From Bigelowiella natans CCMP2755 (taxonomy: Eukaryota; Protista; Cercozoa), in the NCBI GenBank assembly GCA_000320545.1, contig ADNK01000002.1, positions 1 through 64,000 on the forward strand: 64,000 bases of DNA, in the 5' to 3' direction. The notes beneath the pieces were generated by a model. It saw only the letters and a list, made by a program, of their open reading frames with translations. It searched no databases and was not told the DNA's origin. Positions 3,275 to 57,390 of the stretch are shown here, piece by piece. Every line of letters begins with the position of its first letter. Position 1 is the first letter of the stretch. Both the position numbers and the translations under genes were made by a program.

Positions 3275-3899
3275 CCAGATCGTGAATCATCTCCTGTTGA
3301 TTGATTGACTGATTGATTGATTGTGTGTGTCTCTGAACACTCGTTCGTTACCAAGGGGCATGATGACTCGTAGATCTATGTACACATGATGGACTGATGA
3401 TGTCTCGGAGCGGATCCAGCATCACGAATTGATCAATCACCTACGAGTCGTAGTCTAAATCTCGAGTGGATGATGATTGAATCATCCTAAAATCATCCCG
3501 GCACAACACTGATCAATTCCGATAACGGCTCCGACTGTTGATGTTGATTTGACTACTGATGTGTGACTGTTGTGATGACCATAATCTGGTAATCGAAACT
3601 GAAATAGTGCGAGATAGTCTCGAGAGTTTTTCTCAGTGTTGTCTCACAAGTAGATATCTGAAAGTCTCGAGAGTTTTTCTCACTGTCTCACACAAGTATC
3701 TGACATATTTAATTAGATTATGCTTTGGTGAGTAGTACGGTACTCTCTTCCATTTTCTTGCTGGGCAACGAAGGAGAGGGGAGCACAGATTCCAGTTCCC
3801 CTTAACTTCCTCTAAAAGAATAATAAAACATACCTTTCTAGCGATAGTAGCTAACCTCAGTTAGAGCCTCCTATTATTACTTGATTATTACTGCAGAAT

Positions 3900-6062
3900 A
3901 TGAAGATAAATACCATTGTCACGCTTCTATTCTCCACCTTCGTTCTCACCACCACCTTTACAACACTAAATTTGGCCAAAATTATCGGGGGAGGATGGCA
4001 AAGCGACAGCAAATATCAGGAATCAAGCCAACATCGTTGGCGGGGGATCCGACGGAGACATCAAACTGAGTCCAAATCATCATCTTTGACTACATTCTTC
4101 CAACCAACCTCGGCAACACATCACTCTGCTTCATTGAGGTTCAGAGGAGGAGGAATTCTAGGAAGTAAACCTGTCATGAATCAGCAGCATGATGCGGCTA
4201 CCCCTGCCGCTCCTGAATCTTTTGCGTCGTCATCGTCGTCTGCCACTACCCCACAAGGTAGTTGCGGTTCTTCGACTATACAGAGTTCTGGATACCCTCC
4301 TCTCAAGTATGTAATTGTTACCGGTGGAGTATTATCCGGTATCGGTAAGGGAGTAACTGCAAGTAGTATAGGAGTACTGCTGAAAATGATGTATCGAAAG
4401 CCAACAGCAATCAAGATTGATCCATACCTTAATGTTGACGCTGGTACTATGTCCCCACTTGAACATGGGGAGGTGTATGTTCTGGAAGATGGTGGCGAAA
4501 CTGATCTTGATTTGGGAAATTATGAGCGATTTATGGATGTAAAATTGACAAATATGTCTAATCTTACCACTGGTAAAGTTTACAGAGCCGTGATAGAAGC
4601 AGAACGTCGAGGAGATTTTTTGGGAAAGACTGTTCAAGTAGTCCCGCACATAACAGGGGCAATTCGTGGTTGGATTGAAAAGGCAGCTCGCGCACGCATT
4701 GGAATGATGTCAAACAGACGACGGGCAGTATCTGCTGCACCAGCACTTCAAAGAGAAGAAACCCCTGATATGTGTGTAATAGAGCTCGGCGGCACTGTAG
4801 GAGATATTGAGAGTATGCCTTTTTTAGAAGCTATACGCGAATTGCAGCTGCAGGTTGGAAGAGAGAACGTGCTAGTTGTTCATGTATCCCTTATTCCTGA
4901 GATAGGAGGAGAGCAAAAGACAAAACCTACTCAACATAGCGTTCAGAAAATGAGAGAAATTGGAATTTACCCCGATGTACTAGTTGCCCGTACAACTAAT
5001 GATTTGACGAATGGGGCAAGAGAAAAACTTGCAAGTTTCTGCCATGTTGATCCAAGGGATATAATAAGTATGCCCAATCTTAACAATATCTATCATATAC
5101 CGCACATACTTGTCAAGCAAGGTCTTCATAACAAATTTGCAGACCAATTGAAACTACGAAGAAGAACCCTGGATCTGGCGCTGTTGAACTCATGGGCAGA
5201 AACAGCTACAAATATCGACAATTTAAAGAAAAAAGTTAAAATTGCTCTTGTTGGCAAATACACAAAGGGCACTGATACTTATCATAGTGTTGTCAAGGCT
5301 TTGTTACATGCTGCGGTTGCAACAAAGCAAAAACTGGAAATATCTTGGATAGATTCCACATACTTAGAAGATTCTGGTGCAACGGAAGAAGAAGCAGAAG
5401 ACCAACAAATATCACTAAGACGAGATGCCTGGAAACGTCTTAAAGAAGCTGATGGTGTGGTGATTCCTGGGGGATTTGGCCAAAGGGCACTGGAAGGTAT
5501 GATCAACGCTATCAACTATTCACGAACGACGAAAAAACCATTTCTGGGAGTGTGTCTCGGTATGCAACTTGCAGTAATAGAGTATGCTCGTTCAGTGCTT
5601 GGCCGCAAACATGCAGGTAGTACAGAATTTGATAAACATCTGACTCAAGAGGAGCAGGTTGTTATATTTATGCCTGAGGGAGATGCAAAAAAAATGGGAG
5701 GTACGATGCGGTTAGGTGTTAGAAAAACGAAGTTACGCAAAGATTCAATCATGCAGAGTTTATATGGAGCAAAGGTAATAGAGGAACGGCATCGGCATAG
5801 ATTCGAAGTTAATCCTCTGCATGTGGATGCGTTGGAAAAAGGAGGACTTCGGTTTGTTGGAAAGGATGCAGACAAAGGAGATAGAATGGAAGTTGTAGAG
5901 CTTTCAGAAGCTGTTCATCCTTACTTCGTAGCAACTCAATATCATCCAGAATTTAACAGTAGACATACCCGTCCGAGTCCTCCTTTTCTCGGTCTACTGC
6001 AAGCTGCAAAAGTTACTTCTAACGCTGCAGCAGAAGGAGCCTCAAAGTCTGAGCTATCGTAG
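3900..6062 (+). CDS. CTPS: CTP synthase (eukaryote-type) with signal peptide and transit-like leader; intronless
   Basis: KYVIVTGGVLSGIGKG, KIDPYLNVDAGTMSP, DLDLGNYERF, VQVVPH, ELGGTVGDIES, KTKPTQHSV; glutaminase motifs PGGFG, GVCLGMQ, ERHRHRFEVN, QYHPEF. ~135-aa N-terminal extension starting with a hydrophobic stretch. Confidence 0.97.
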   Translation: MKINTIVTLLFSTFVLTTTFTTLNLAKIIGGGWQSDSKYQESSQHRWRGIRRRHQTESKSSSLTTFFQPTSATHHSASLRFRGGGILGSKPVMNQQHDAATPAAPESFASSSSSATTPQGSCGSSTIQSSGYPPLKYVIVTGGVLSGIGKGVTASSIGVLLKMMYRKPTAIKIDPYLNVDAGTMSPLEHGEVYVLEDGGETDLDLGNYERFMDVKLTNMSNLTTGKVYRAVIEAERRGDFLGKTVQVVPHITGAIRGWIEKAARARIGMMSNRRRAVSAAPALQREETPDMCVIELGGTVGDIESMPFLEAIRELQLQVGRENVLVVHVSLIPEIGGEQKTKPTQHSVQKMREIGIYPDVLVARTTNDLTNGAREKLASFCHVDPRDIISMPNLNNIYHIPHILVKQGLHNKFADQLKLRRRTLDLALLNSWAETATNIDNLKKKVKIALVGKYTKGTDTYHSVVKALLHAAVATKQKLEISWIDSTYLEDSGATEEEAEDQQISLRRDAWKRLKEADGVVIPGGFGQRALEGMINAINYSRTTKKPFLGVCLGMQLAVIEYARSVLGRKHAGSTEFDKHLTQEEQVVIFMPEGDAKKMGGTMRLGVRKTKLRKDSIMQSLYGAKVIEERHRHRFEVNPLHVDALEKGGLRFVGKDADKGDRMEVVELSEAVHPYFVATQYHPEFNSRHTRPSPPFLGLLQAAKVTSNAAAEGASKSELS

Positions 6063-7083
6063 CTGCTTTAGGTACAAAAGTGCCAGCACGACCAAATTAA
6101 TATCATGAATCACACAAACACTGATCGGGTGCCAAATCTCATGACGAGGCAGACCGTATTGCAACAATATAGGAAATGCTACGAGTACCTTGCTGTGTGT
6201 GTTGTAGCTTTCGCATCACGTACGTACACGCTAATAAGTAACTAGTGCTAGATAGAGCTCACACATGGCATCCTAGATGACATGGGTGCAACATGCATGC
6301 GTCGCGGCCAATGCGATGATGTGCGTTCGATTTTGGCAACTATAACTAGATAACGCTGCTGCTGTATGTAGCCAGCTTGTAGCAGAAACTATATGTGACC
6401 GGATGGAACTGGAGGATGTGCGTTGTGAAATAATATAGATGTAGCTAGAAAGAGCGATAGCAACCAGCAATGTTTCGGTGTTACCCCAATTTTTGGCTAC
6501 ATATATTTATCATTGCAGTTTGTAGCAATGGAGGCCTTTTGTGCCGTAATGTTATGCATTTGCTTAATTTGATCAGTGCAGTTGTGTGAGACACATGCTA
6601 GCAACCGTCTTTAAACGAATTGCGGCCTTGCGGGCGCTGTCCGCATGAGACGGGTGTAATGATTGAGTTAAATTTTATCCATAGTGAGCTATCGTATGTA
6701 CTATTACGATATAAAACTAATATAATTAATCAATTAAATTTGCTCAATGGTTATCCTTATGTAGCTGTGCAATGCAGCGGCATATGTCATCCATATAAAC
6801 AGCTGTAAGTATGACATTTACACATGTTCTGCAAATGAGACAACAATTTTCGTGCCGATCGAGCGTCATTCGCATTCGCGCATTAGACATTATTTGCATT
6901 TTGAATGTTGGTGTCAGCGATGATCTTCTCATCATGACATGTGATTTAGCGCTGCATGACAACGTGCTGCTGTGAAGAACTACATAAAAATCAGCACAAT
7001 CTGTGGAGGTGAGGCCAATTGAATACGACCAGGCGTTTCAAAATATATTCACCAGTCTAATTGGAACGGCGACACAACAAACA

Positions 7084-9037
7084 TCAAGTTACAACCTCTG
7101 TGCAAAAGTCCGTTGACTTTGCATGTAAACCCAAATCTTTTGCTTTCATTCGAGCAAGGAGGCCAGCAACCGAATCAAGGATAACAGCACCTGAGTCAGC
7201 TAGCTTCACCTTTTTCCCACTTTTTCCTCGTCGTCCATTTTTATGAGACAATGTTTTGTTAAAGCTTTTAGCATTACGAGCCGTTGGTGTTAAGTTTGCA
7301 GGTTTTAAATCATCTCCACATTTGTCGTTATTCTTCGCCCACTGCTTGAGTTGAAGATTGTCATCCTGATAAAATTGCAACTTTGAATGGTCATGCGACA
7401 TGTACCATCTGCATACTACCGAAGCCGAAGTCTTTCTTCTTCTGTGACGTTTTCTTGTTCTTTTACGATGAGTTAGATCTCCCATATTATCTACACCACC
7501 TTTCTAGAGAATATAAGATATTCGCCAGTAAAACATGATGTTGAACACATTTTGACAGAAGAAGTCAAATAAATAAATAATATCATGAACCTGATCTATT
7601 GCAGTTTTCCTAAACTTTTGAGGTATTTCCTCTTTGGCCAGTCCTCTCACTGCATATAAACGGACTGCCATGTCCTAGAACAATTAAAAGTAACACTGAA
7701 ATTGGCGAATCAACGATATTGTCTCTAGAACAATTAAAAGTAACACTGAAATTGGCGAATCAACGATATTATCTGAAGATTGATGAGATATCTTCTCCTA
7801 TATGAGTAATTCCAAGGCAGCAGCAGCAGCAGCAGCAGCCCCATAAAACATTGCTAAGATATCATCTCTATGGGACTATAGTTCTCTAAGACAGCAGCAG
7901 CAGCAGCAGCAGCCTAAAAAACAACCAACCATTGCTGTTCCACTGCAGTCCATGTCCCGTATCTCTAGCTCACGAGACAGAATCATCCGCCCATATGCAT
8001 ACAACTGATGACAAAACAATTGCGTACAGTAATACATCACGTATTTCGATAAGAATAAGAGACTGAGTAGTTAGTATCTTGTTCCAGATGTGAAGCCTGA
8101 CATCATATGGTGATCTTGCTGCGTTAACATCAATCTTTGCATGTTCTTCCATGAAATCCTGCAATCCTGCAAATTCTTCCGCGAACTGATACTGCCCCGA
8201 TGCCTACCGTACATAGTTGTGATCGGAAATGTAATACGTCTTCTGCAATTGACATCAAGAGACCTGTAGTTTCTCCAATTCCTCCTTCCGAAGTCTATTT
8301 AATGAACATGTCAGATCACTAATTCTCTTATCGCCCAAATGATATGAATGAAACCTCGTCACATTCATTATAATTACTTCTCTATTTTGCGTTCCTCCTC
8401 CAAGATTCGGAGGCGTTCTTTTATTTTTGCTTGTCGCATCTTTTCTTCCTGCTGACGTAGCCAAACTTCCTCTAAGTTCTTCATACTGCCTGACATGTTG
8501 TTACCAGCAGGGTTGCTAAGATGTGATAATTACACTCTACTACTAGCTAGTAGAAATAGTTCACGGATACTACTTTCATCCATTGATGATTTAGTAGAAA
8601 TAGTTCACGGATACTACTTTCATCCATTGATGATGATTCACTCTCGCTCCTTCATGAGACTTGCTCACGAATCCTACCTGGATGCCATGGCTTGTGATTC
8701 ATGAAATTATGGTAGCCTCCCCCCCCTCCTCGGAATCGTGGCAGGGACTCCCTTAGATCATCCTTTAAATGCACAAGAATATTTATGTAAATATGATGTG
8801 CATAAATATGTGCATAAATATTTGATGCCGAAGAGTTGGGTGGTACAATTATCCATTCAACATGATTACTTTTCCATGAATCTTATCTGGCTTCGACTGC
8901 CTCCTCGTGACCAAATGGGTTTTACTCACACGGAATCTCGTTTGAAAATGCTGCAACGTAGAGGTGGCGTGGATTTGTAAAATATCTTCGCTCATCCATA
9001 GTAAAAGAGTAACTACGCCGAGTAATGATGCTCGCAT
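7084..9037 (-). CDS. CWC25/CIR1-like (Cir_N domain) splicing factor with bipartite leader, multi-exon
   Basis: Exons 9037-8870, 8762-8678, 8489-8378 and 8294-8264 splice in frame: MRASLLGVVTLLLW...LPRFRGGGGGYHNFMNHKPWHPGSMKNLEEVWLRQQEEKMRQAKIKERLRILEEERKIEKLRKEELEKLQ. The KxWHP..N...VW pattern followed by coiled coil is the Cir_N pattern. K/R-rich last exon ends at 7084. Confidence 0.72.
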
Positions 9038-18978: not shown

Positions 18979-21900
18979 CTAAGCGGACGTGGGGCCGACA
19001 AGGCGAGGGAGCTTGTAAGGTAGAGTCTTTGTAGTTATTTTTCTTTTTCTGGTGCCTTGTAGCATGATGGTTAGTTTTTCTCTGTATGATATAGGGAACA
19101 AGAAATCACAGTGTTTCTTGTTGCTAGGTCCTGGTAGAGCCTTAGTAAGTATATCAGCGGGATTGTCCTCCCCAGGTATTTTGTTTATGCAGATCTGCTT
19201 AGTTTGATAGTTATCACGAACATTGTGATATTCTATCCTTATGTTCTTGCCTTTTTGTGTGAATCCAGGCTTGGCTGCAATGGAGATAGCTGCTTGAGAG
19301 TCACAATACACAGGTACAGGTTTCGGTATCTTCATCTTTAACTCCTGTAGTAACTGAGTGACATACACTAACTCTCTGCATATATCTGATAGTGCTATGT
19401 ACTCAGCCTCGCCACTGGACATAGCAACGACCTTTTGCTTGTTGCTCTTCCAGACAACAGGTGCGTTGCTTAGCGATATGAAATATCCTGAGTATGATTT
19501 ACCCGTTTTCTTGCAGGTTTTCCAGGAGGCATCGACGTAAGCTTTAAGCTCAGGTTTGGACGCTGCTTTAAAGGTAATTCTTTTATCCTTTGTATTGACC
19601 AGATACTGCAGTAAGCGTACTGCAGCGATGTAGTGTATAGTTCTAGGATCTTGACTGTAGGAAGCTAGACGAGATAGAGTGTAGCATATGTCTGGTCTAG
19701 TAGCCACAGCTGCATACATTGCAGCTCCTATGATGGATCTGTATGCCTTTTGATCCACCTTATCATGCTCCTCGTATTCGTCTAACTTCGATCCTGTTAT
19801 CATTGGTGTTTTTGCTCTTTTCGTAGGCGTGATATCATACTTCTGGGCGAGTCTGGTGAGGTAGTCTTCCTGCGATATCCAATAGTTTCCCTCATTGTCG
19901 CTACCAACTCTTATGCCCAGTGTTTTCTTTAGCTCGCCTTCATCGCGAAACTCAAACTTGTCGCCTATTCGCTTCATGACAAAGTCCAGGTCTCTCTTAT
20001 CTTGATATGCTATGCATATGTCATCCACGAAACATGACAATATGATGATTCTTCCTTGTCTGTGCATTATCATTAGGCAAGGATCGGAATAAAGCTGGAC
20101 GAAGCCAATGGCGTTGAGATGCTCGAGCAAGGTAAGGCTGAATATTGCACTTGCTTGTGTCAGCCCATAAATGCTTTTATTTACCAGTAGGGCTAGTGGA
20201 AGGCCACTGTTGTATAGCCGGATTTCATCAGGTGTCTTCGGCTTCCACCCTTTAGGTATTTCCATGTATACTTTACAGTCCATCTTTCCAGTTAGGAAAG
20301 CTGTAAGTATATCTATCCCGTGTAGTTTTAGCTTGAGGATAGATGCTATGGCTAACATTATCCGAAAACTATTTAGGGACAACGTCGGGGAATAAGAGAA
20401 GAAGAAGTCTTCTCCCGGGATCTGCGTGAACCCTCGCGCGACCAGCCTTGACTTATACCGAATGGTATAGTCTACATTTATTTTCTTCTTGAATACCCAT
20501 TTAGATGTAACGAAATTTGTATCCTTAGGTCGCACTACCAGCGTAAACGTTCCAAGTTTTCGAAGCTGGTGCAGTTCCTCTTCCGTAGAAGGTATCCAAT
20601 GCTTCTTATCATCTCCTGTGATTGCATCGTCATACGTCTTAGGAAGGTCCTCGATCTCTTGTACTGATGGAGCTTTTATGTTCATCAGGCGGTCGTAATA
20701 GCTACCAAGTATTCCGTAACGAATACCAGGTACTCCCCTATTTTCTCTATTCGACCTTCGAGGCTTACTTTTTGCTTTTGTTTCAGGCCCACCATCCTCT
20801 GGCAACTCGTCAGTTGCACTGGATGGTTCGGGGGCGTCCGCGTCGGCAGGACCTTCTGGATAAAGGTACGCCAAAGCCGAATCACTAACTTTGTTTCTCT
20901 TCAGCGAAGGAAACTTAAACACTGTGTGGTACCATTTAGTTACACGGACTCTTTTAATTTTCAGCGTCTTCGTGGCGACGAGAAAAGTACCAAATCTATC
21001 GTCATATCCCAACATACGTACGTATTCACCTCTAGCACCCATACCACCTGCAGGTCGGAGTTCCTTGTCAATGTGGTTTACTCCGATGCATCCCCAGGTA
21101 GTTAGATTCTTTAGATTTGGTTGCTCATGGTGCAGTAGTTCTTTAGGCGTTTTTCTACCAGGTGTGCTGCGATGTGAGGTGACGTTGTGGAGATATGCTG
21201 CAGTCTGAGCTGCGTAGGACCAGTATCCGACCGGTAAGCGTGCATGTTCTAACATAGCTCTTGTTTTCGCCATGATAGTCTGTATGTGACGCTCGGACAT
21301 TCCATTTTGCTCAGGTGTTCGGGCGGTGCTAGGAACCCATTTTATTCCTTCGGAGGTGAGCCAGCTATGTAGCTTTGCGCTCATATATTCACCTCCACCA
21401 TCCGATCTGAATTCGTCTATGCTTCCACAACCTGGAAGCTTTCTGATGTGCTTTAGGAACTGTATGGTTTTCTGCGTAACTTCGCTTTTCTTTCTCATGA
21501 GCTCCAAGGTAACCCACCTTGTTCCTTCATGTACGAATATTACGAAATACTTGTAACCATCCATGCTGTTAGGCATGGTCTTTACATCAGAGTGAATTCT
21601 ATTCCACATCCGGTTTTTCTTGTGGATATCAGGTACACATTTTTGCTTCTTTTTGACAGCATCGTCCTCAATCTTTGCTTTATTCCGATGCTGTTTCATC
21701 CTTTCTTGGGCGCTTGGATCAAAGATCGGAGATCTTTTTGTTTTGGCTACATCACAGGCCTTGCAAAAGATCTTCTTTGGTATTTTTATCGTCTTGGAAT
21801 AAGGTAAACCTTCTGTAACTGCATAGGTGTCTCTTATCTTATCCGCTGCGATGTGCCCTAGGATGTTATGTGCGTGCTTGATTGAAGATGGCTGTTTCAT

Positions 21901-23421
21901 TGGGTAGGATTTAAATCTTTGTGTTTTTGTACTTTTGTTTATTTGTTTATATCTCAAATAAAATAGGCCGTCGTCTTGAAAGTCCCCGAACGCGTATTCC
22001 TCTCCGTTGGCGGTAATGCTTATTCCTTGTTTTGTTCCTTTGTACTCGCTGCCACTCTTAACTAGTCTGTTTAGAGAAATCACATTGCCTGCAGCTTCTT
22101 CAGAGTACAAAGCTCCTTGTAGAACAATTTTGTGCATCTTTCCTTGCTTGTTTTTTGTAGTTAGTTTGACGTCGCCTGCATAATTCACAAAGAATCCTGT
22201 CCCATCTTTGCCAACTTCTATGTATCGTGGTTGAATAGGTTTCAACTCGTTGAAGAAGTCGCGGTCGCAGAAGAAGTGGTTGTTGGCTCCGCTGTCGAGA
22301 AGGATCAAAGGCTTATGGTTGTACTTCAGCGTTTGCAGGTAAGAATTGTCGCGTGCCATCTTATTAATGTAAGAGGGTCTTTGGGAAGGGGAGCCATGAT
22401 CAATAAAAGAATAGTGTTTTCCTTTGTTCTGCTTGCCTTCATCTCTCATCTTGTTTCTGCATTCCTTTTCCCAATGTCCTTTCTTGCCACAGTAATGGCA
22501 TTTTGTTCTTTTCTTTAAGTTCAAGAAATAGTCTTCTCTCTTTTGCTTCTTGGAATTGTCTTGATATGCTTCGCTGTTGTATCTGTTCTTTCCCTTTTTG
22601 AATTTCCTCTTGTAGGTCTTCAGCTGACCTGTAAGTTCGTTTAGCCTTTTCTCCAAGCCATCGTACATCTTCACGTATTTGTGTTCTGCACTGGTGTGTC
22701 CTGCATGTTTCTTTGAAGGTCTCTGCCCGTCATCTAATGATCGGGAGTTTATGTGGGAGCGGATCATGTCCACTGCAGAGTCGAAGGTAACATCTTTCTT
22801 GTTGTTGATGACTGTAACTATAGTCTCGTATTTTTCGCTAGGTACAAGTCCTCGAAGTAGAGTGGCAAGCGCTTGGTTGTCGGAGTACCCTTCGTGCTGT
22901 GCCCGAAGTCTTCTGATCGTCGAGTCAAGGTCAGAATGATACTTTGTGAAGTCTCCATTGTACTGACCCATGTTTATATCACTTAGTTTCGAATAAAGTT
23001 TCCTGACGGCTACAGGATTGGTAGGCTCGTACTTCTCCAGCAAGGCTGCTAAGGTAACTGCTACGTCTTTGGGTTTTCCTTCGAGTAGATCGAAGAATTT
23101 ATCAGGAAGGGTAGCAGTGAGGAAGAATCTTCCTCTCTTTCTTTTGTTTATCTTTTCTTGTGATCCTCTTCCTTCAGGTTTGGGATTGAGGATATCGAAT
23201 TGCTCCGGGGATAGCTTGAGTACTTCTCGTCGGTGAGCGGGGTCGGTGCGTACATTGACTTCTGTCACCTTTCCTTCTATTTCTATGTTGACATTGAAGC
23301 ATGATTCCAAATCCGCTGCTTCAAAGGCAGACATTAGCTTGTACATGTAGGGCTTGTAGTTGCTACCATCGTACTTGAGGGTGAAGTTTTTCAGCAGGGA
23401 GTCTATCTGCTTTTCTGACAT
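18979..23421 (-). CDS. Copia gag-pol polyprotein (1480 aa)
   Basis: Zn knuckle CHYCGKKGHWEKEC; protease LLDSGA; integrase H..H..CKAC, IHSD, RSDGGGEY, PEQNGMSER; RT KSRLVARGF, SIYGLTQA, FVDD; RNase H YVDASW, NPADILTK. IN-before-RT order defines Copia. Confidence 0.98.
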   Translation of the reverse strand: MSEKQIDSLLKNFTLKYDGSNYKPYMYKLMSAFEAADLESCFNVNIEIEGKVTEVNVRTDPAHRREVLKLSPEQFDILNPKPEGRGSQEKINKRKRGRFFLTATLPDKFFDLLEGKPKDVAVTLAALLEKYEPTNPVAVRKLYSKLSDINMGQYNGDFTKYHSDLDSTIRRLRAQHEGYSDNQALATLLRGLVPSEKYETIVTVINNKKDVTFDSAVDMIRSHINSRSLDDGQRPSKKHAGHTSAEHKYVKMYDGLEKRLNELTGQLKTYKRKFKKGKNRYNSEAYQDNSKKQKREDYFLNLKKRTKCHYCGKKGHWEKECRNKMRDEGKQNKGKHYSFIDHGSPSQRPSYINKMARDNSYLQTLKYNHKPLILLDSGANNHFFCDRDFFNELKPIQPRYIEVGKDGTGFFVNYAGDVKLTTKNKQGKMHKIVLQGALYSEEAAGNVISLNRLVKSGSEYKGTKQGISITANGEEYAFGDFQDDGLFYLRYKQINKSTKTQRFKSYPMKQPSSIKHAHNILGHIAADKIRDTYAVTEGLPYSKTIKIPKKIFCKACDVAKTKRSPIFDPSAQERMKQHRNKAKIEDDAVKKKQKCVPDIHKKNRMWNRIHSDVKTMPNSMDGYKYFVIFVHEGTRWVTLELMRKKSEVTQKTIQFLKHIRKLPGCGSIDEFRSDGGGEYMSAKLHSWLTSEGIKWVPSTARTPEQNGMSERHIQTIMAKTRAMLEHARLPVGYWSYAAQTAAYLHNVTSHRSTPGRKTPKELLHHEQPNLKNLTTWGCIGVNHIDKELRPAGGMGARGEYVRMLGYDDRFGTFLVATKTLKIKRVRVTKWYHTVFKFPSLKRNKVSDSALAYLYPEGPADADAPEPSSATDELPEDGGPETKAKSKPRRSNRENRGVPGIRYGILGSYYDRLMNIKAPSVQEIEDLPKTYDDAITGDDKKHWIPSTEEELHQLRKLGTFTLVVRPKDTNFVTSKWVFKKKINVDYTIRYKSRLVARGFTQIPGEDFFFSYSPTLSLNSFRIMLAIASILKLKLHGIDILTAFLTGKMDCKVYMEIPKGWKPKTPDEIRLYNSGLPLALLVNKSIYGLTQASAIFSLTLLEHLNAIGFVQLYSDPCLMIMHRQGRIIILSCFVDDICIAYQDKRDLDFVMKRIGDKFEFRDEGELKKTLGIRVGSDNEGNYWISQEDYLTRLAQKYDITPTKRAKTPMITGSKLDEYEEHDKVDQKAYRSIIGAAMYAAVATRPDICYTLSRLASYSQDPRTIHYIAAVRLLQYLVNTKDKRITFKAASKPELKAYVDASWKTCKKTGKSYSGYFISLSNAPVVWKSNKQKVVAMSSGEAEYIALSDICRELVYVTQLLQELKMKIPKPVPVYCDSQAAISIAAKPGFTQKGKNIRIEYHNVRDNYQTKQICINKIPGEDNPADILTKALPGPSNKKHCDFLFPISYREKLTIMLQGTRKRKITTKTLPYKLPRLVGPTSA

Positions 23422-23580
23422 GTTGTTTCGTTCCTGTTTTCTTTGTTTTCAGTGCTTTGGAGGCTTGACCGAAGATTGGCTGAGGGAATGCTGTTGTCGC
23501 TTTCAGTTCCTTCTTCTGGAAGGATGTAGCTGAAGGGGGGGGGTGGGGGGTTTGCTTGGTTCTTTTGCAAGTCCTCTTGA

Positions 23581-47006: not shown

Positions 47007-47045
47007 ACCTTTGGCTTCCACACACGGGAAACGATTTGACTAACA

Positions 47046-48227
47046 ATGTCACAGCAGCTAGAAGAACAGCAGGACTTTGGCTCGCAGGCCGTGCAAGGGC
47101 ACGAGCAGAAACAGGAAAGGAAGGGCGATACGGACGCTAAGGAAGGAGGAGGAACACCTCCACAGGCACCGCCGGGACCAGCACCCGGGATTAAGAAAGC
47201 AGATGCAGCAGCAGAGGCACTGGAGAACTTCTACGAGGCGGACGACGAGGACGTGGCCGCCGAAAGCAAGAAGGTCGTAATGGCATTACGAGCCTTGCGA
47301 CCCAGGGCGAGCAACTACGCCAAACTGAAAGTATCGATAGAATACAAGTATCAGACACATGATGTTTGGGCAGCTATCATGCAGGACATCATGGATTACG
47401 AAGCAGACTTACCTCCAGAGTGGGCAGCTTTGTTTAGGAACGACGGGGGTCTGGGCGCCTCGCGGGGGACGACCCAGAGCACCGTCAAGCAGCAGCAGCC
47501 GGTACAGCGGAACACCCAGTTCATGTCTGTTAAAACAGCACCGGTTATGATAACGAAATACAACGGGAAAAGAGGTGAGGCAAGGAGGTGGTGGAAGAAC
47601 GCTAGGAGTATACTCTGCGACTTTACCCCTAACCCCACCGAAAACGACAAGCTCAAATGGCTAGCTATAATAAAGCAAGCCATGGACCTTTACGAGACAG
47701 GCAGGACCCGGATCAGGCAGCTAGAGAAAATACACACTACAGTTAGTGGGCTACGAGACGTTGAGGCGATAATGAAGGCTTTTGTAAATGAACAGGATGC
47801 TAACTCCCTACCCCAGGCTATTAGAAAATACAGAGCAATGATGCAGCATGAGAGAGAACCTGTTAGAGACTTTGCCACGCGCTTCCAGGATATGATCGAC
47901 GAACTACATGATTTTAATTACAACACAGGTGATGATCAGGCAAGGTTTGAAGAGTTCAAGTTAAAGATAAAGGAATCCACTTACGTTACGGAGAAAGGCT
48001 ACACCACGATGGAGGCAGCAGTGCAGGCTATATCCCTACGCGAGCAGGAGCAGGACCGCAAGTTTACCAGCCCTAAGGTACCTGGCATAGGAAACATTAA
48101 CGCTATTAAGCCGCAGCGAGACTGGTACAAGGACAGGGAAGGTAACCGACGTTGCGGATACTGCTCACGTAAAGGGAAACACACCGCTAAGACTGCAGAG
48201 ACAGGAAAGAAGGACGACCCAGGATGA
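47046..48227 (+). CDS. gag: Gypsy Gag
   Basis: Capsid-like MHR-type segment QHEREPVRDFATRF; partial Zn knuckle CGYC..H near the end. Confidence 0.85.
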   Translation: MSQQLEEQQDFGSQAVQGHEQKQERKGDTDAKEGGGTPPQAPPGPAPGIKKADAAAEALENFYEADDEDVAAESKKVVMALRALRPRASNYAKLKVSIEYKYQTHDVWAAIMQDIMDYEADLPPEWAALFRNDGGLGASRGTTQSTVKQQQPVQRNTQFMSVKTAPVMITKYNGKRGEARRWWKNARSILCDFTPNPTENDKLKWLAIIKQAMDLYETGRTRIRQLEKIHTTVSGLRDVEAIMKAFVNEQDANSLPQAIRKYRAMMQHEREPVRDFATRFQDMIDELHDFNYNTGDDQARFEEFKLKIKESTYVTEKGYTTMEAAVQAISLREQEQDRKFTSPKVPGIGNINAIKPQRDWYKDREGNRRCGYCSRKGKHTAKTAETGKKDDPG

Positions 48228-51200
48228 CGATCAGGCAGCTCAACGAACACTACGAGAAGTTAAAGAGAAAGAAAGGCAGAGGACAAGGATATAACAACAG
48301 CAAATGGCAAGGCAGCAACAACGGGAAGAACAATAAATATAAGAACAAAAAGCAGAACAGTATCAATGCTATACAGCAGCAGATAAACGGAATATTAGAT
48401 CACCTTAAGCAGGCGCCGACGAAGACAGCAGTACCAGCAACGCAGGACCAAGACAAGCCCATGACCCTAGACGACATAAAGAACTTAGGAGTATGCAACA
48501 TTAATGACGAAGACGCTAACAGGACTATCAAAGTTGCTATGACCAAGGTTAAAGTTAAAGACAGCTACGGAGACTACAAGAAACTACCTGCCCTTTGGGA
48601 TAGTGGCAGCATGCCGAAGTCCTTCATAAGCCTAAGCACAGTAAGAAGGTTAGGACTATTGGATCAAGTGACTAAGAAAGAACGTAAATATGCTCAAGCA
48701 GACGGAAGCTCTTCCATGAAGACCGTCGGTGAGCTAATGCTAAAGCTACAGATACCTGGCAGCGACGCGGAGACCCAAATCAAGACCCGAGTAGCCATGA
48801 CTTTATCCATGGAACTACTCCTCGGACAGGATGCCCTAGAAAAATTAGGGGGGATCATATCATTCTACAATCACAAGATATACTTTGCTAAGTTGCCAAA
48901 GAAGTCAGGCAGGACCATCAGCCAGAACATGATACGGCTTGACGAGTGGACCTCTGAGTCAAGCGTTAATGCGTTAGAGTTTATGGACCTAGCGGACAAC
49001 AAGCTACCTACACCTACCGAGCTACGGAAGAAGAACCCCGGCAAGACCATCCGACAGATAACGGAGCTACTGGACAAGACCCCCCCAGCTGATGATTGGG
49101 ATATCGACAAAGGCAAAAAGTACATTAATAAAATATTAAACGAGAAGTACTCTGACATCACCAAGCCGACGACGAAGCCCTCCAGCAAGCTTACCCCAGT
49201 AAAGATCGAGCTAAAGAAGGGATACGAAGAGTGCATCATCAATGACCCAGAACATAGGCGACCGGAAGCGGACTGGGAAAAGATAGAGTGGCAGATCAAT
49301 GAATGGGCAAAGGAAGGGAAGATAGAGCCAAGCAACTCACCATGGAACGTGAGACATGTGCTAGCTAAGAAACCTACTTACCCTTTCTTCCGCCTGGCGC
49401 ACAACTTCATCCGCCACAACCGAGTAATAAAGAGGATCCAGACACCTACACCAAGGATAGATGACGTTATTGAACACGTCATAGGATACAAATACTACTC
49501 TTCCCTAGATAAAAATGAATCATACATGCAGACACCCATCCACAAAACCTCCCGCCCCATTACCGCGTTCTCCAGCAGGCACAGGAAGTGGCACTTCGTC
49601 GTATTCCCTTACGGCCTAAGCATATCAGGGGATGCGTTCAGTAGTCAGAACTACAGGGCATACACACATGATGGGATGGCGTCTGTGTTGTGGGTGTTTG
49701 TGTTTGTGTATGTGGATGATGACATAATATGTACCAACACAGTCGTCGCTCAGATCTTCCTCCTGGAAAATATATTTATTAGGTTTGCACACTTCGGTTT
49801 TACTATTAGACTGCAGAAGTGTACATTCCTAGCTACAAGAATCAAGTGGTGTGGATATTACCTGGAGCAAGGCCGCATCACCCCAAACCCCGAGAAAGTA
49901 GCAGCACTACAGCAAGCCCCTAAACCTAAGAATGCAAAGGAGTTAAAGTCATTCTTGCAGACTGCAGCTTGGATACTACGTAGGTTCTCCCCTACCTACG
50001 CTAGGACTGCAGCTGCTTTTACTACTGCTTACCGGAAGGAGAACTCTGTAGGCCTCAGCTTCGCTAAGGTGTGGGCCAAGGCTGGCCTTGATGCCCACTT
50101 CGATAACCTAATAAAGTTATGCAGCAACACCCTATTGAATGCTAAGCTAGACACTACTAGACCAGCTACCCTATGGACAGACTGGTCTAAGCTAGGTATG
50201 GCTGCTGTACTTACCCAAGACCAGCAGATCATACGGGTGTGGGGCAGGGCCTGCACAGCAGCTGAGGCCAAGTACAGCCCTACAAAAGGAGAGTATAAAG
50301 CCATGACTGAGGCGCAGAGGAAACTAAGATACTACCTGCTGTCGGTGCCCAGCTTCACCTTAATGACTGACCACAAGCCCCTCCTAGGCATCGACCGCAA
50401 GCTCGAAGCGCCTAACGATGAGTATGCAGCTATGAGGGCGGACACGGAAGAGTTTAGGGACAAGAGGACAGTGGTCTACGCACCAGGAGACAAGCAGCTT
50501 GCTGACTATTTCAGCAGGCTGTTCGAAAAGAAAGTCCCTACCCAGGTCACCCCTAGGGTTAACGCGATTACCTTCGAGGACGGCGACTTCCTGCCTGAGC
50601 CAGAGGAGCTCCAGCACCTTCAAGAACACCTGGATAAATACAAACACAAGCATGAGGTACTTAGTGATAGGATATATGTATACACTAATAATGTTAGGCG
50701 TACCTACGTGCCACGGCGGACCAGGGGAGCCCTTCTCTTTACCGCCCATGGACCTGCACACGTAGGAGAAAACCATATCACTGCTCTACTCTACCATTAC
50801 TACTGGCCCTACAAGCTAAAAGAGATAAGGACATACCTGCGTGGCTGCAGGTGCTCCAGCTTGAAGGCGGCAGGCGTCGCCACCAAGGAGTCCAGCAAGA
50901 GCCGTGCATCTAAGAAAATCAAAGCAAGGAACTTCTTAGATATCGTGCAAATTGATGTTTATAAGTACGATGGCTATCACTACCTTACCTTCGTTGATGT
51001 GGCCACTGGAAAGTGCTGGGTTAAAAAGATTATCAAGGTCAACGTTGCTAAGAAGAACAAAGGCTTATATAAGCAGAGGCTTACTAACTGCTACCGTACC
51101 TGGGAGTCTGAGCTCCAGGCTATCCCTGATGAAGTTAGCATAAACAAGATACCAAAGAAGTTACATGTGGATAATGAGACCTCTCTTCTACAGCTACCAC

Positions 51201-52018
51201 ACCCTAATATTGATGCCTCACCTGTATACTATGCCCAGTCCAACTCCAAGGTAGAGCGACTCCACCGCACCTTGGCCAACCTAAGCAGGATAAATAGCAC
51301 CACACCAGACAAGATACAAGGGTTAGTAAACGACACCTTCACGTCTGGGGGAGGTATCAAGGATAAGGAGAGGGAAGAAGGCGACGACAACGACGACGAT
51401 ACCGAGAGCGAAGACGAGAAGGTCCCGTACGATGGCCGAGTTCTAAAGGAAGGACAGTATGTTAGGGCCAAGGTAAATCTGAGATCGAGAAATAAACAAG
51501 ACCCCTTCTGGGGTGGCGTTGCAAAGGTTACCGAGAGGAAGGGGAGGAAGCAGTACTACATCTATGATGGGAACAGGGTCACCTTGCGCCACATCAGTCA
51601 CCTAAAGAATTATGATATCGGTGAGAAGCTCCTAGAGGATGTTAAAGTAAACCCTACTGTGTGGGAGCGAGCAATGCCTTGTTTAGGACCCCGACCTAAG
51701 TTCGATGTGGAATATGGAAACAATAAGGTCAGGGTGAACGACGATTGGCGCATGAAGATTGTCTATCTAGGCTACCCTGGATTACGAAATATGGAGAGGG
51801 TAGCTATGAAAATAAAGGACGGAAAATATCAGCTACTCTACCTAGCTGTTCCCGACTTACCCTTTGAGCACTGGTATAAGGTCCTGGGGGACCTTGATGC
51901 AGAGGGCTGGTATGGACACGAACCTAAGGACGAAGGTGAGTTCTGGGTAAGCGACAAAGGAGATAAGGTTAGAGAGGAATCTATTACCTGGTGGTTGGTG
52001 AAGTTCCGAAAGCGATGA
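48191..52018 (+). CDS. pol: Gypsy Pol (PR-RT-RNase H-IN plus extra C-terminal domain)
   Basis: ALWDSGS; SPWN; FPYGL; YVDD; LWTDWS; TDHKPL; integrase IVQID..VDNE..SNSKVERLHRT. The frame opens at 48191 after a TAA; first ATG is at 48224. Confidence 0.95.
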   Translation, partial: DCRDRKEGRPRMTIRQLNEHYEKLKRKKGRGQGYNNSKWQGSNNGKNNKYKNKKQNSINAIQQQINGILDHLKQAPTKTAVPATQDQDKPMTLDDIKNLGVCNINDEDANRTIKVAMTKVKVKDSYGDYKKLPALWDSGSMPKSFISLSTVRRLGLLDQVTKKERKYAQADGSSSMKTVGELMLKLQIPGSDAETQIKTRVAMTLSMELLLGQDALEKLGGIISFYNHKIYFAKLPKKSGRTISQNMIRLDEWTSESSVNALEFMDLADNKLPTPTELRKKNPGKTIRQITELLDKTPPADDWDIDKGKKYINKILNEKYSDITKPTTKPSSKLTPVKIELKKGYEECIINDPEHRRPEADWEKIEWQINEWAKEGKIEPSNSPWNVRHVLAKKPTYPFFRLAHNFIRHNRVIKRIQTPTPRIDDVIEHVIGYKYYSSLDKNESYMQTPIHKTSRPITAFSSRHRKWHFVVFPYGLSISGDAFSSQNYRAYTHDGMASVLWVFVFVYVDDDIICTNTVVAQIFLLENIFIRFAHFGFTIRLQKCTFLATRIKWCGYYLEQGRITPNPEKVAALQQAPKPKNAKELKSFLQTAAWILRRFSPTYARTAAAFTTAYRKENSVGLSFAKVWAKAGLDAHFDNLIKLCSNTLLNAKLDTTRPATLWTDWSKLGMAAVLTQDQQIIRVWGRACTAAEAKYSPTKGEYKAMTEAQRKLRYYLLSVPSFTLMTDHKPLLGIDRKLEAPNDEYAAMRADTEEFRDKRTVVYAPGDKQLADYFSRLFEKKVPTQVTPRVNAITFEDGDFLPEPEELQHLQEHLDKYKHKHEVLSDRIYVYTNNVRRTYVPRRTRGALLFTAHGPAHVGENHITALLYHYYWPYKLKEIRTYLRGCRCSSLKAAGVATKESSKSRASKKIKARNFLDIVQIDVYKYDGYHYLTFVDVATGKCWVKKIIKVNVAKKNKGLYKQRLTNCYRTWESELQAIPDEVSINKIPKKLHVDNETSLLQLPHPNIDASPVYYAQSNSKVERLHRTLANLSRINSTTPDKIQGLVNDTFTSGGGIKDKEREEGDDNDDDTESEDEKVPYDGRVLKEGQYVRAKVNLRSRNKQDPFWGGVAKVTERKGRKQYYIYDGNRVTLRHISHLKNYDIGEKLLEDVKVNPTVWERAMPCLGPRPKFDVEYGNNKVRVNDDWRMKIVYLGYPGLRNMERVAMKIKDGKYQLLYLAVPDLPFEHWYKVLGDLDAEGWYGHEPKDEGEFWVSDKGDKVREESITWWLVKFRKR

Positions 52019-53726: not shown

Positions 53727-54760
53727 TAGCGAGCATTAGGCGTAGATGGGGATGATTGCCACTAGCCATGTTGCTGCACCGACAGGATGCTTTAACAAAA
53801 CATCGGGTGCCGACAATGTGTGATCATGGAGGTGATAATATCCAGCTACTTCTGATGCGATGATTTAGACTTTCACTTGCTAGCTTGTACGCGTTATAAA
53901 CAGCTGCGATGGCTAGTTTGTACGTTATGCGTATCAAGATGTCGTAGGCGGCGTTCTCGATCGTATATCCCATGATCACGATCGATCGCTAGATCGATCA
54001 ACACGGCTCGCATATCGCAATAAAAGCAGCTGGGCTACACATCAAGACATGCACATATGCACAACGTAGCCGCTGCTCGCGCATATATAGCTAGCTTCGT
54101 AGCTACATTACTAGATTAGGGTGACGTACTATTGAAAGAATGCAATCATTTCATTACTCCATCTCATGTAACTGTTATTGCTAGCGCCAACAATGTCCAT
54201 GACTACTAGACTAGATAAGGCGGATCGGATGTAAACGACTGTGTGAATTTTTTATTTTTAAATGTCATCGTGATGTACGTACTAGCTAAGATGCGTCTAT
54301 GACTATGGTCCATACATGTCATGTGATAGAAAATTATGTAAATTATAATATTTATGTATATTATATAGCATGTATATACATGCTACATGGTATATAAAAG
54401 TATATTACGACGAGATAGTATTACGTACGTCTTGCGGTGACACAAATAAATCAACTCCAACATGTATTATGCCAGCTTGTATTCCTAGATTTTAACTTTA
54501 CAAATACATATAATAACGATACTCATTCACCGTGAGATACAATCAAAAGAAGCTTAGTTCGCTTGAATCTCTGAGTTCTGTGTTCCCATGGCTATTCGTC
54601 AATGATTCTACAGAGCGATACTCATCCAACTAGAATAGAATGATTATGTAACCCAAATGTTCCTAATGAACTCCTTTAACTTCGTTCTATGTTCAATACC
54701 GCAAGGTCTTTGTTTATCCTTCTTACTATTACAAGTGTGGGTTCATAACAACGTATTTCT

Positions 54761-56317
54761 TCAGTTGGTATTCCTCATGAAGCCTTTCTTATGAACGTTT
54801 GTAGTGGAATGCTGTTTTTTTCCCATCGGCTTACTCTTCTTCCCTCTTACAGTTGGAGTATGAGAGCTACCTCCGACAGTTACTCTCATTATCCATGAGT
54901 CAAGAGTATCAGAAGCAAGTTTGAATGCAGAAGGGCTTGCCCGCAAAATGTTCTCTGCCGTCTCAGCACCTACCCTTTTCTCTAACTCGCTTCGCACGTG
55001 CATGACTCTATCAGATGATACCCTGAGCATGCCGGGGGATCGTTCTATGACTGCAAGTGCGTGTGATTCAGACCCTAAGGCTTCTGCCAATGCATCATAA
55101 GCATCCATTGCAGTTTTACTAGGAGCTTTAAGGACGGTTGGATTTTTCTTTATCAGTTCCTCTGCTTTATTCTCCCCAAACAGCTTCTTCAAGACCTTCC
55201 AGGATCCTACCATTGTATCTTTGGGTGAGTTAAGCACCCCTGGAGACTGTCGCACCACTTCAAACGAAGATTGTTCCCCAAGAATTTCAACGAGATTATC
55301 CCATGCTCCCTTCACCGTATAGCCAGGGGCACGGAGAAGATCAGGGTTATTTTGCACTGCTCTCAAAGCTTCAGAATGTCCCAAGACATTTTCAAGCACT
55401 TCCCATGCTCCTTGAACAGTATCTCTAGGAGCTTTCAACACTGCTGGGTTTTTCACAACTAATGCAACCGCAACTTCAGGGCCGAAGAGAACCTGCAGTG
55501 CCTCTAATGAGCCTGTCATTGTAGGCCCTGGAGCTGAAAGAACGTTGGGGCATCTTTCACATAATTCAATGGCATCCTCAGCGCCCACCAATGTCTCTAA
55601 CTTTTCCCATGCTCCCCTTATAGTTGGTTCTGCTACTTTAAGGAGAGAAGGGCTCTTGCGTATGAGTGAGGTTGCTTTTTCTCTCCCAACAAATTCAACT
55701 AGAGCATCAAAAGATTTGACCATCGTCGATTCAGGTGATGTTAGTACAACACTGGTACGAGTGACAAGCTGCAGAGCGTCGTCTTCTCCAAATAAAGATT
55801 TGATTACATGCCAAGCACCAGATAGAGTTGTGAGAGGTGTGGCCAGCACTCCAGGTCTTTTTATGAGGATATCCTTGGCCTTTTCAGATCCTACAAGATC
55901 TTCCAAAAACTTGAATGATGAGCGAGCACACAATTCTGGTGCTTTAAAGACACCCGGACTGCGTGACATGACTTTTATGGCGTTCGATAGGCCAACCTGC
56001 TCAACGACAAACTCCCATGTACCTGTAGCGGTACAATTCGCAATTGGACGAAGGCATCCTGTAGGAGTCATAAGTAACTTCGTTGCTTTGCTTGCAGAAA
56101 GTTGCTGCATCATGAGATCCTGGATAGTTCTTCTGGGTTTTTGAAACTGACTATTACCATTATCTGAAAGTTGATGATGATGTCCTCGCACTGCAAGCTC
56201 TCTCCAAGTATCCTTCATAAACACTAACGAATCTGTACCCTCACATACAGACTGGTCATTGAAGTACAAACTGTTTCTATGAAGATGACTAATGTGAAAT
56301 CTTCTCGAAAACGGCAA
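54761..56317 (-). CDS. mTERF-like helical repeat protein, probably organelle-targeted (true start upstream)
   Basis: About 11 repeats of ~34 aa of the form GAW..L..LxG.E.A..LV...P.VL.AP..T, resembling mTERF repeats. Confidence 0.7.
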   Translation of the reverse strand: MPFSRRFHISHLHRNSLYFNDQSVCEGTDSLVFMKDTWRELAVRGHHHQLSDNGNSQFQKPRRTIQDLMMQQLSASKATKLLMTPTGCLRPIANCTATGTWEFVVEQVGLSNAIKVMSRSPGVFKAPELCARSSFKFLEDLVGSEKAKDILIKRPGVLATPLTTLSGAWHVIKSLFGEDDALQLVTRTSVVLTSPESTMVKSFDALVEFVGREKATSLIRKSPSLLKVAEPTIRGAWEKLETLVGAEDAIELCERCPNVLSAPGPTMTGSLEALQVLFGPEVAVALVVKNPAVLKAPRDTVQGAWEVLENVLGHSEALRAVQNNPDLLRAPGYTVKGAWDNLVEILGEQSSFEVVRQSPGVLNSPKDTMVGSWKVLKKLFGENKAEELIKKNPTVLKAPSKTAMDAYDALAEALGSESHALAVIERSPGMLRVSSDRVMHVRSELEKRVGAETAENILRASPSAFKLASDTLDSWIMRVTVGGSSHTPTVRGKKSKPMGKKQHSTTNVHKKGFMRNTN

Positions 56318-57390
56318 AGGATGTCCAACACTTCCGCGTCCACTTTGTGTTCGTGTGTACGCAAAGCCACTTCTTAATCGGTAAGGCTCCTAGTAAATTA
56401 AAAAATTATCATTAATTTACAAAGATATAAGCTGAATTTAGTCGTATTGAAATTGTGTGGTAATAAATTACAGCTGGTTGCATGAGGAGAAGCATGAAGA
56501 AGGCTCCAACGACGATAGGTTGCATACTTGGATGGACGACAACCCCACACACTCCATACACACCAAACATCACCGCCACGTACTATACACGCGCGAACGC
56601 ATGTGCGAACGTGCACAAGGGTGAATTATAGTGTCAAGTAGGACGTATGAGAGTAGGGGGGGGTGGGTGTTGTGTTGTGTTCTGACCGACCGTCACTATC
56701 CGGCACTACCTGCTCGTAAGATGCGAAGGTTGTTGTTTCTATTGTATAAGAAATACTCTCATCTGTAGGAAATACGCAGTATCTTTTGCGCCAACTTGAT
56801 TATCACACAAGATTTAGAAGAAGACGACGACAGAAATTGTTCTATGAATTATTGTTATTATTTCAAATAAGTCAGAAAATAAGTATGCAAGGAATGACCA
56901 AAATATGATTTTATTATAACAGTTGAAATCCCAAAGGTGGTTGTCCACGTTCTTGCTGCTGAGAACAAACATGAATGGTAATATTCCCATCATATTTTAT
57001 ACACGTACAACGATGGTGTCAATCAACAAATTTAGAAGTATTCTGCAATGATACAGGTGCTTGTTGGTGATGGGGCTATTGATTTGATGGTGTTGGTGAT
57101 TGCGGTGGTGGAAAGCTTGAACTAGCAATTAGTGGTAAAATACTCGTGCGAGTTAACAATGAAAATGGGATGGCAATAATATGATGGTGATGATAATGAC
57201 CAGAATTACAACGATCGTTGGAAACACCCTGCAGAGTAGGGAGCAGAAGAAATCGTTGTACGCACAAATTGCGTTGAAGAGTGCATATGAGTAGTACTGA
57301 AAGATAGCAGGGTACGAATGGCTCACTGGACCAACGAACAGAAGTGGAACTTTCTTCGTCGTTATCCTGTAGCACCATTGGATAGAGAAA

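Follow-up and report, generated by a model that had tools for sequence, protein, structure and literature searches.

Two convergent genes in the 64,000 nucleotides of the chlorarachniophyte Bigelowiella natans CCMP2755 analysed here (contig ADNK01000002.1, positions 1 to 64,000, forward strand; hereafter the window) code for proteins whose N-terminal leaders end in the same ubiquitin-tail-like motif, RFRGG. One product is a CTP synthase, the other a protein with Cir_N and SDE2_2C domains (gene 2). Five observations were made: the motif itself, its position, its conservation amid leaders that diverge, its enrichment in proteins of the periplastid compartment (PPC) of Guillardia and the lack of a preceding ubiquitin fold. 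Judged from the sequences, hydrophobic-R-G-G at leader ends is a real and conserved presequence feature that crosses lineages of algae with complex plastids. We propose, with a probability of roughly 0.6, that it is a fold-less mimic of the ubiquitin tail, behind whose GG a PPC deubiquitinase or ULP-type protease would cut, in red- as well as green-derived plastids.

In gene 2 the motif LPRFRGG was confirmed exactly where an earlier note on this DNA had placed it, in a frame joined by transcripts (Table 1). The same note had called the product CWC25-like. This holds for the Cir_N domain (PF10197, E 3.7e-9), but the protein is not a plain CWC25, since the SAP domain SDE2_2C (E 5.3e-8) is also present; matches in the PDB were found to CWC25 (E about 0.002) and to SDE2. 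The SDE2 architecture is incomplete, as SDE2_2C alone matches in Pfam, with neither the N-terminal ubiquitin-like (UBL) domain nor the SDE2 domain. Seven junctions were seen in RNA-type contigs from the runs X15 and X16, and the nine exons are taken from the transcript protein P0138, whose map alone supports the intron 7929-7675. In another transcript protein, P0144, an in-frame intron of 54 nt (7366-7419, minus strand) is retained. Translation probably begins at the upstream ATG (9106), which is favoured because it is kept in B. longifila and the Met at 9037 is not; the hydrophobic segment (hydrophobicity window 2.9) would then be recessed. The leader is basic by inspection. The product is a predicted nucleomorph splicing factor, possibly one specific to the nucleomorph and its tiny introns.

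Four full-length or nearly full-length orthologues of gene 2 were compared (B. natans, B. longifila, Norrisiella and P0141). In 4/4 of these chlorarachniophyte proteins [L/F]RGG is followed by three glycines and the invariant start of Cir_N; upstream of the motif, the leaders can hardly be aligned. Among 1.84 billion representatives scanned there were 84 matches, with the chlorarachniophyte-type orthologues as the sole full-length relatives of gene 2. For 66 of the 81 other matches a Met start without extension was found; spliceosomal Cir_N is thus a cargo of eukaryotic cytosolic or nuclear type with leaderless relatives. Their conserved Trp/Phe is located at positions 9-23, mostly 11-19. The conserved Trp of gene 2 is residue 13 counted from the predicted GG cut, within the range of the leaderless homologues (Met counted), and the residues past GG align on Gly2-Gly4 of human CWC25. 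Only a cut of the leader at GG would make Cir_N the very N-terminal part of the mature protein. In yeast, Gly2 of Cwc25 touches the branch point, and binding to the spliceosome is weaker with an N-terminal tag, but the same tag is stated not to impair splicing (PMC5340917). Exact removal of the leader is therefore plausible, not proven necessary. When metagenomes were scanned with the CWC25 alignment, 314 sequences matched the pattern, none of them confirmed as a relative. In the ESM Atlas, structure matches for the CWC25 orthologue all had a TM score under 0.5, none of them usable by its features, and a search with the CTP synthase leader gave no usable match.

For the CTP synthase, SLRFRGG at the end of the leader was likewise found as described in the note. 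Both expected Pfam domains are present, CTP_synth_N (aa 136-419) and the class I glutamine amidotransferase domain GATase (aa 459-701). The gene is unspliced: RNA-type contigs of X15 and X16 span 3720-6195 without junction. The 213 raw RNA reads of X24 lie almost all at 3' ends and hold no start or splice information. Between the 3' ends of the two genes a high-copy short repeat is located (6720-6785), and polyadenylated RNA reads end near 6753. Residues 27-84 of the CTP synthase contain 17% R/K, 28% S/T and 5% D/E; past GG the share of R/K is only 2%. Signal peptides were called by eye and with a hydrophobicity window, and cleavage sites by eye. The chlorarachniophyte setting and the bipartite-leader layout assumed in the note are supported. 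Of the layout which the two leaders were said to share, the hydrophobic segment, the basic segment and RFRGG stood; the motif lies exactly at the domain start in gene 2 only, because the CTP synthase keeps a linker of 50 residues rich in Ser, Thr and Ala.

The top match of the CTP synthase was the B. natans model Bigna1/51407 (97%), followed by an Amorphochlora protein (64%). Bigna1/51407 takes as its start a Met that lies past the motif, i.e. the leader (window 3900-4175) is missing from the public model. Furthermore, it omits about 15 aa (about 4710-4760) that are shown as unspliced by RNA-type contigs. Public models of this type lose the leader and would therefore hide the motif from genome-based predictions of PPC proteins. 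The enzyme may also have a stromal role, as its homologues include stroma-type leaders.

Sixteen eukaryote-type CTP synthases with an extension of at least 40 aa were collected from the best 120 of 7,999 matches and from cluster members. This set excludes the truncated model of B. natans, near-duplicates within clusters and two short extensions of archaeal type. RGG was found in the extension of 10/16 leader-bearing enzymes (9/15 clusters), belonging to Amorphochlora, brown algae, Eucampia and diatom-grouping records. At the corresponding place, xRGG is present in the Amorphochlora orthologue and in ochrophyte homologues. Two of the RGG-bearing brown-algal models are without signal peptide. 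The background is low, with 12 RGG and 0 [LFIM]RGG in 78,169 core residues of CTP synthases. All six enzymes lacking RGG have an aromatic residue past the signal peptide, a stroma-type signature (by eye). Among the ochrophyte-type CTP synthases (P0007, P0014, P0017, P0044, P0063, P0101) some stroma-type leaders and some RGG leaders were seen, also by eye. The sequences suggest that CTP synthase changed its plastid sub-compartment more than once. In a tree of the CTP synthases (36 rows, quick method, 17/102 short matches sampled) no supported branch joined the chlorarachniophyte pair to the ochrophyte clade; a common inheritance of the motif through this gene is therefore neither shown nor excluded.

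R[LFIM]RGG occurs in the six frames of the window at these two sites only; 100 shuffles gave a mean of 0.25 matches, and at least two in 2%. The DNA flanking the two motifs is dissimilar beyond the motif codons, hence the pair is not a copied element. As a single control, the mTERF gene at 54359-56720 (minus strand), with an intron near its 5' end and a hydrophobic leader or signal peptide, has no RGG in the first 250 aa. Leaders of low complexity that are rich in Arg and Gly could produce RGG by composition, and plain RGG indeed arose in 6-7% of the shuffles of each leader (p 0.06-0.07); three of the five glycines of gene 2 are, moreover, the natural start of CWC25. For R[LF]RGG the shuffled leaders gave p 0.0003 and 0.001. 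Together with the conservation across orthologues and the counts for Guillardia and Amorphochlora given below, this has already largely refuted chance, which we regard as extremely improbable.

No match to a ubiquitin family was obtained with Pfam in either leader at E<=1. The predicted structure of gene 2 has no strands in the leader, a weak prediction from a 4-sequence alignment with pLDDT under 50 in this part. As far as these models go, there is no ubiquitin fold (beta-grasp, about 76 aa) ahead of the motif in either leader. This bears on the view that the motif is a functionless relic of decayed ubiquitin fusions or, for gene 2, of the ubiquitin-like leader of SDE2. Fusions of this kind exist: Amorphochlora has a ubiquitin-actin fusion, and in the PPC ubiquitin of Guillardia the leader is followed by a ubiquitin-like unit that ends in RGG. 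Gene 2 carries the SDE2_2C domain, and maturation of Sde2 takes place at a GG, in fission yeast by Ubp5/Ubp15. The missing family matches and beta-grasp speak against a relic, as does the GG of gene 2, which precedes Cir_N and not the N-terminus of SDE2. Furthermore, the motif alone is retained in four genera or species whose leaders otherwise differ around it, which is unlike a functionless relic. We consider this explanation very unlikely; a relic origin as such can coexist with cleavage by a deubiquitinase or ULP-type protease.

That the motif is enriched where leaders end, which the note had proposed to test, is supported, also in cryptophytes and ochrophytes. In Appendices S2 and S3 of ASAFind 2.0 (PMC12136025) leaders were counted by eye, with sequences to 400 letters; the PPC ubiquitin of Guillardia was left out of the xRGG count. 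A leader ending in xRGG was found for 11/31 PPC-matrix proteins (Guillardia 7/15, Thalassiosira 4/16). The motif is present in 6/6 Guillardia PPC proteins tested with green fluorescent protein (GFP), namely ugg-t, EF-1alpha, 14-3-3, RRM1, CyP and Ubc8. By text search of the cryptophyte plastid set, [LMIF]RGG ends the leader in 3/101 rows, all three without aromatic +1 residue (Fisher p 1e-5 against the 7/15 of Guillardia). In Guillardia EF-1alpha the motif occupies the place of the initiator Met when compared to the leaderless diatom EF-1alpha of the same table. The register argument for a cut at GG, already made in the note for Cir_N, is strong for both CWC25 and Guillardia EF-1alpha. Appendix S5 (262 localised Phaeodactylum proteins) contains no RGG text; full sequences are assumed to be absent from it, and it counts neither way. 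PPC leaders are described in the paper by the missing aromatic +1 residue and by charge distribution, their prediction has low sensitivity, and its main text contains no 'RGG' (PMC12136025).

The pyrenoid proteome of Amorphochlora (Table S1 of PMC10927497) comprises 154 proteins, 134 of them nucleus-encoded. LRGG occurs 14 times in this table: once in RbcL, once in the ubiquitin-actin fusion, once internally and 11 times at the end of an N-terminal extension. The latter 11 represent 10 distinct proteins, compared to about 0.6 expected among 134. Annotated cargoes are an importin-4-like protein, CK2-beta, an FKBP-type isomerase, a ClpB/Hsp101-like ATPase, Hsp70 and a RanGAP-like protein.

According to the proposed mechanism, the signal peptide would mediate entry into the endoplasmic reticulum (ER), followed by delivery to the PPC. 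There the leader would be cut off after the second glycine of hydrophobic-R-G-G, presumably by a resident ubiquitin-family protease (deubiquitinase or ULP-type) of the former endosymbiont cytosol. Since this cytosol already had enzymes cutting after LRGG, a leader with a ubiquitin tail would be removable without a new peptidase, and for the same reason one motif could be found in green-derived plastids, which have no SELMA, and in red-derived plastids with SELMA. A wider claim is that both plastid types independently made the last residues of ubiquitin the general signal for leader removal in a large class of PPC and nucleomorph proteins, with an endosymbiont deubiquitinase or ULP as the postulated PPC transit peptidase; to this we give slightly less than even odds. 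A PPC leader peptidase has been postulated without being named (PMC5756292, PMC5487736). With ptDUP, a Ubp15-like deubiquitinase of the PPC has been described for stramenopiles, haptophytes and Vitrella (PMC12412216). Chlorarachniophytes have no SELMA, yet a plastid-type Uba1 is reported for them in the same paper.

The motif might also be the cut site or boundary mark of a PPC peptidase outside the ubiquitin family, e.g. a retargeted metallopeptidase of the stromal-processing type, with a likeness to ubiquitin that is incidental or historical. The register evidence from CWC25 fits such an enzyme equally well. The stromal processing peptidase of Amorphochlora, PPAP13, showed a putative-PPC GFP pattern in the accessible rows, and diatom variants such as IRGG, TRGG, SRGG and ARGG depart from the ubiquitin tail. 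In the cryptophyte and chlorarachniophyte copies, however, five or six residues of the tail are often matched, and a motif shared by two independently acquired plastid types is explained more easily through an enzyme which both endosymbiont cytosols already had. Hence, a peptidase of another family is regarded as unlikely.

Several points weigh against cleavage by a ubiquitin-family protease. Fast cutting by deubiquitinases usually requires the entire ubiquitin fold. We infer both the cut after GG and the type of the protease from sequences, and the PPC location of the two window proteins is predicted. The distance from GG to the enzyme domain is 50 aa in the CTP synthase of the window and 16-92 residues in CTP synthases generally. 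According to the accessible part of PMC12412216, ptDUP is absent in cryptophytes and apicomplexans and unreported for chlorarachniophytes; cryptophytes, in which the motif is most ubiquitin-like, are thus a lineage without ptDUP, which also favours a peptidase of another family. The six GFP-tested Guillardia proteins stem from two papers (five from Gould 2006) and were perhaps not picked at random, and the p values overstate the support because related rows are not independent. In the ASAFind tables the motif is lacking in 20/31 PPC-matrix proteins, including the cytosol-type PEPC1, sDrp and proteasome beta2, and present in only 4/16 Thalassiosira rows; in our reading, many of the motif-less rows look like ER-lumen types by name. 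Among the Amorphochlora GFP results (16/25 rows accessible) LRGG ends the leader in 1/5 PPC-labelled proteins and 1/10 proteins of stroma or pyrenoid (Fisher p 1.0), or in 2/5 and 1/10 if LQGG is also counted (p 0.24). The GFP fusion of PPAP10, which has an LRGG leader, was localised in the pyrenoid matrix. Specificity of the motif for the PPC is unsupported by these Amorphochlora data.

A further precedent is PUBL, the periplastid ubiquitin-like protein of the Toxoplasma apicoplast. It contains RGG between apicoplast leader and mature domain, which was read as a possible deubiquitinase site, but in the accessible part of the report the site is unprocessed and the exchange of GG to AA leaves complementation unaffected (PMC5487736). 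PUBL is a single ubiquitin-like protein with a dispensable, uncut site, whereas the window motif is found on unrelated cargoes. The uncut site also fits a motif that acts as a sorting or stop-transfer signal, which keeps the protein in the PPC or off the envelope translocon like the glycine stretch of Toc75 and need not be cut. In diatom and red-algal Omp85, LRGGG in the N-terminal region replaces the polyglycine stretch of Toc75 (PMC2222254), and in the CTP synthases and the cryptophyte set the motif and the aromatic +1 signature of stromal proteins are apparently mutually exclusive. A sorting signal does not agree with PPAP10, which bears the motif and is found in the pyrenoid matrix, nor with the many proteins that reach the PPC without it, and it does not need a GG end that matches the native N-termini of CWC25 and EF-1alpha exactly. 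Sorting by the motif therefore seems improbable to us.

The leaders in the window share with the bipartite PPC presequences of chlorarachniophytes, cryptophytes and diatoms the hydrophobic N-terminal segment, the basic segment rich in Ser and Thr, and cargo of cytosolic or nuclear type. Unlike the RFRGG of the window leaders, neither a conserved C-terminal motif nor a peptidase is described in the accessible parts of the published accounts consulted. In precursors of ubiquitin or UBL fusions (polyubiquitin, the chlorarachniophyte ubiquitin-actin, SDE2) a hydrophobic-R-G-G tail directly precedes the mature protein. Gene 2 corresponds to this exactly; in the CTP synthase the tail lies 50 aa upstream of the domain. 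As with these fusions, the predicted cut would produce a non-Met N-terminus. The tails in the window differ in that they end an organelle-targeting leader without preceding ubiquitin fold, and that the cut is predicted. If the cut is inferred correctly, the motif behaves like the cut site of a ubiquitin fusion, yet it is no ubiquitin fusion. The LRGGG of diatom and Cyanidioschyzon Omp85 consists of the same letters and likewise lies near the N-terminus, in precursors bound for the plastid; in the accessible text it is a passing remark on two membrane beta-barrels, unlinked to the PPC, ubiquitin or processing (PMC2222254). The cargoes in the window are a soluble enzyme and spliceosomal domains, not envelope beta-barrels. 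Proteases of clan CE (ULP/SENP, adenain, pS273R of African swine fever virus) cut short linear GG sites without ubiquitin fold. Their viral sites serve virion maturation, whereas the window motif is predicted to act in cellular organelle import. A role as RGG box in RNA binding or methylation was set aside, as the motif is single-copy, located at leader ends and found on unrelated cargo.

In the literature searched, from which most subscription papers fell outside coverage, no description of 'RGG' or 'LRGG' as a leader motif was found. The accessible parts of five further papers contain no such motif (PMC3542566, PMC12730881, PMC6332867, PMC6411479, PMC6995639); RGG itself was looked for in 3/5. 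Because the motif is conspicuous in published Guillardia sequences, an earlier mention is quite possible, although we expect it less than its absence. A motif of six residues makes the removal of leaders from proteins retained in the PPC directly testable. If cleavage at the motif is true, the motif would readily predict which proteins really belong to the PPC and nucleomorph, and plastid lineages that differ in their import machines would have converged on it. The set of nucleomorph-targeted proteins would also become sharper, here by a splicing factor and by a CTP synthase whose public model omits the leader.

Table 1 Features of the two genes with RFRGG leaders (positions in the window)
Feature	Positions	Strand	Basis or remark
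CTP synthase gene, intronless, 720 aa, predicted periplastid-targeted	3900..6062	+	Open reading frame, Pfam, homology, RNA-type contigs
Predicted signal peptide of CTP synthase, about aa 1-26	3900..3977	+	Hydrophobic window 2.19 at aa 6; boundary by eye
Basic, Ser/Thr-rich transit-peptide-like segment of CTP synthase	3978..4130	+	Residue composition
SLRFRGG, ubiquitin-tail-like; RFRGG is aa 80-84, nt 4137-4151; predicted cut after G84	4131..4151	+	
Ser/Thr/Ala-rich linker, about 50 aa, motif to enzyme domain	4152..4304	+	Homologues 16-92 aa
Gene 2, CWC25/Cir_N and SDE2_2C (SAP), 9 coding exons, 363 aa	7084..9106	-	RNA-type contigs, P0138 exon map, Pfam, PDB matches
Cir_N region of gene 2, exons 2-3, split by intron 8677-8490, begins directly past motif	8378..8723	-	
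LPRFRGG (RFRGG 8738-8724); predicted cut after GG gives native-type Gly N-terminus of Cir_N	8724..8744	-	
GT-AG intron, 107 nt, joins leader exon to motif exon in frame	8763..8869	-	Junction in X15 and X16; joined in P0138
Leader exon of gene 2: N-region, hydrophobic segment about aa 27-38, basic segment	8870..9106	-	

Elsewhere in the window, polyproteins of two retrotransposons with long terminal repeats were found, one of the copia type at 18982-23448 (minus strand) and one of the gypsy type at 47040-52015 (plus strand).

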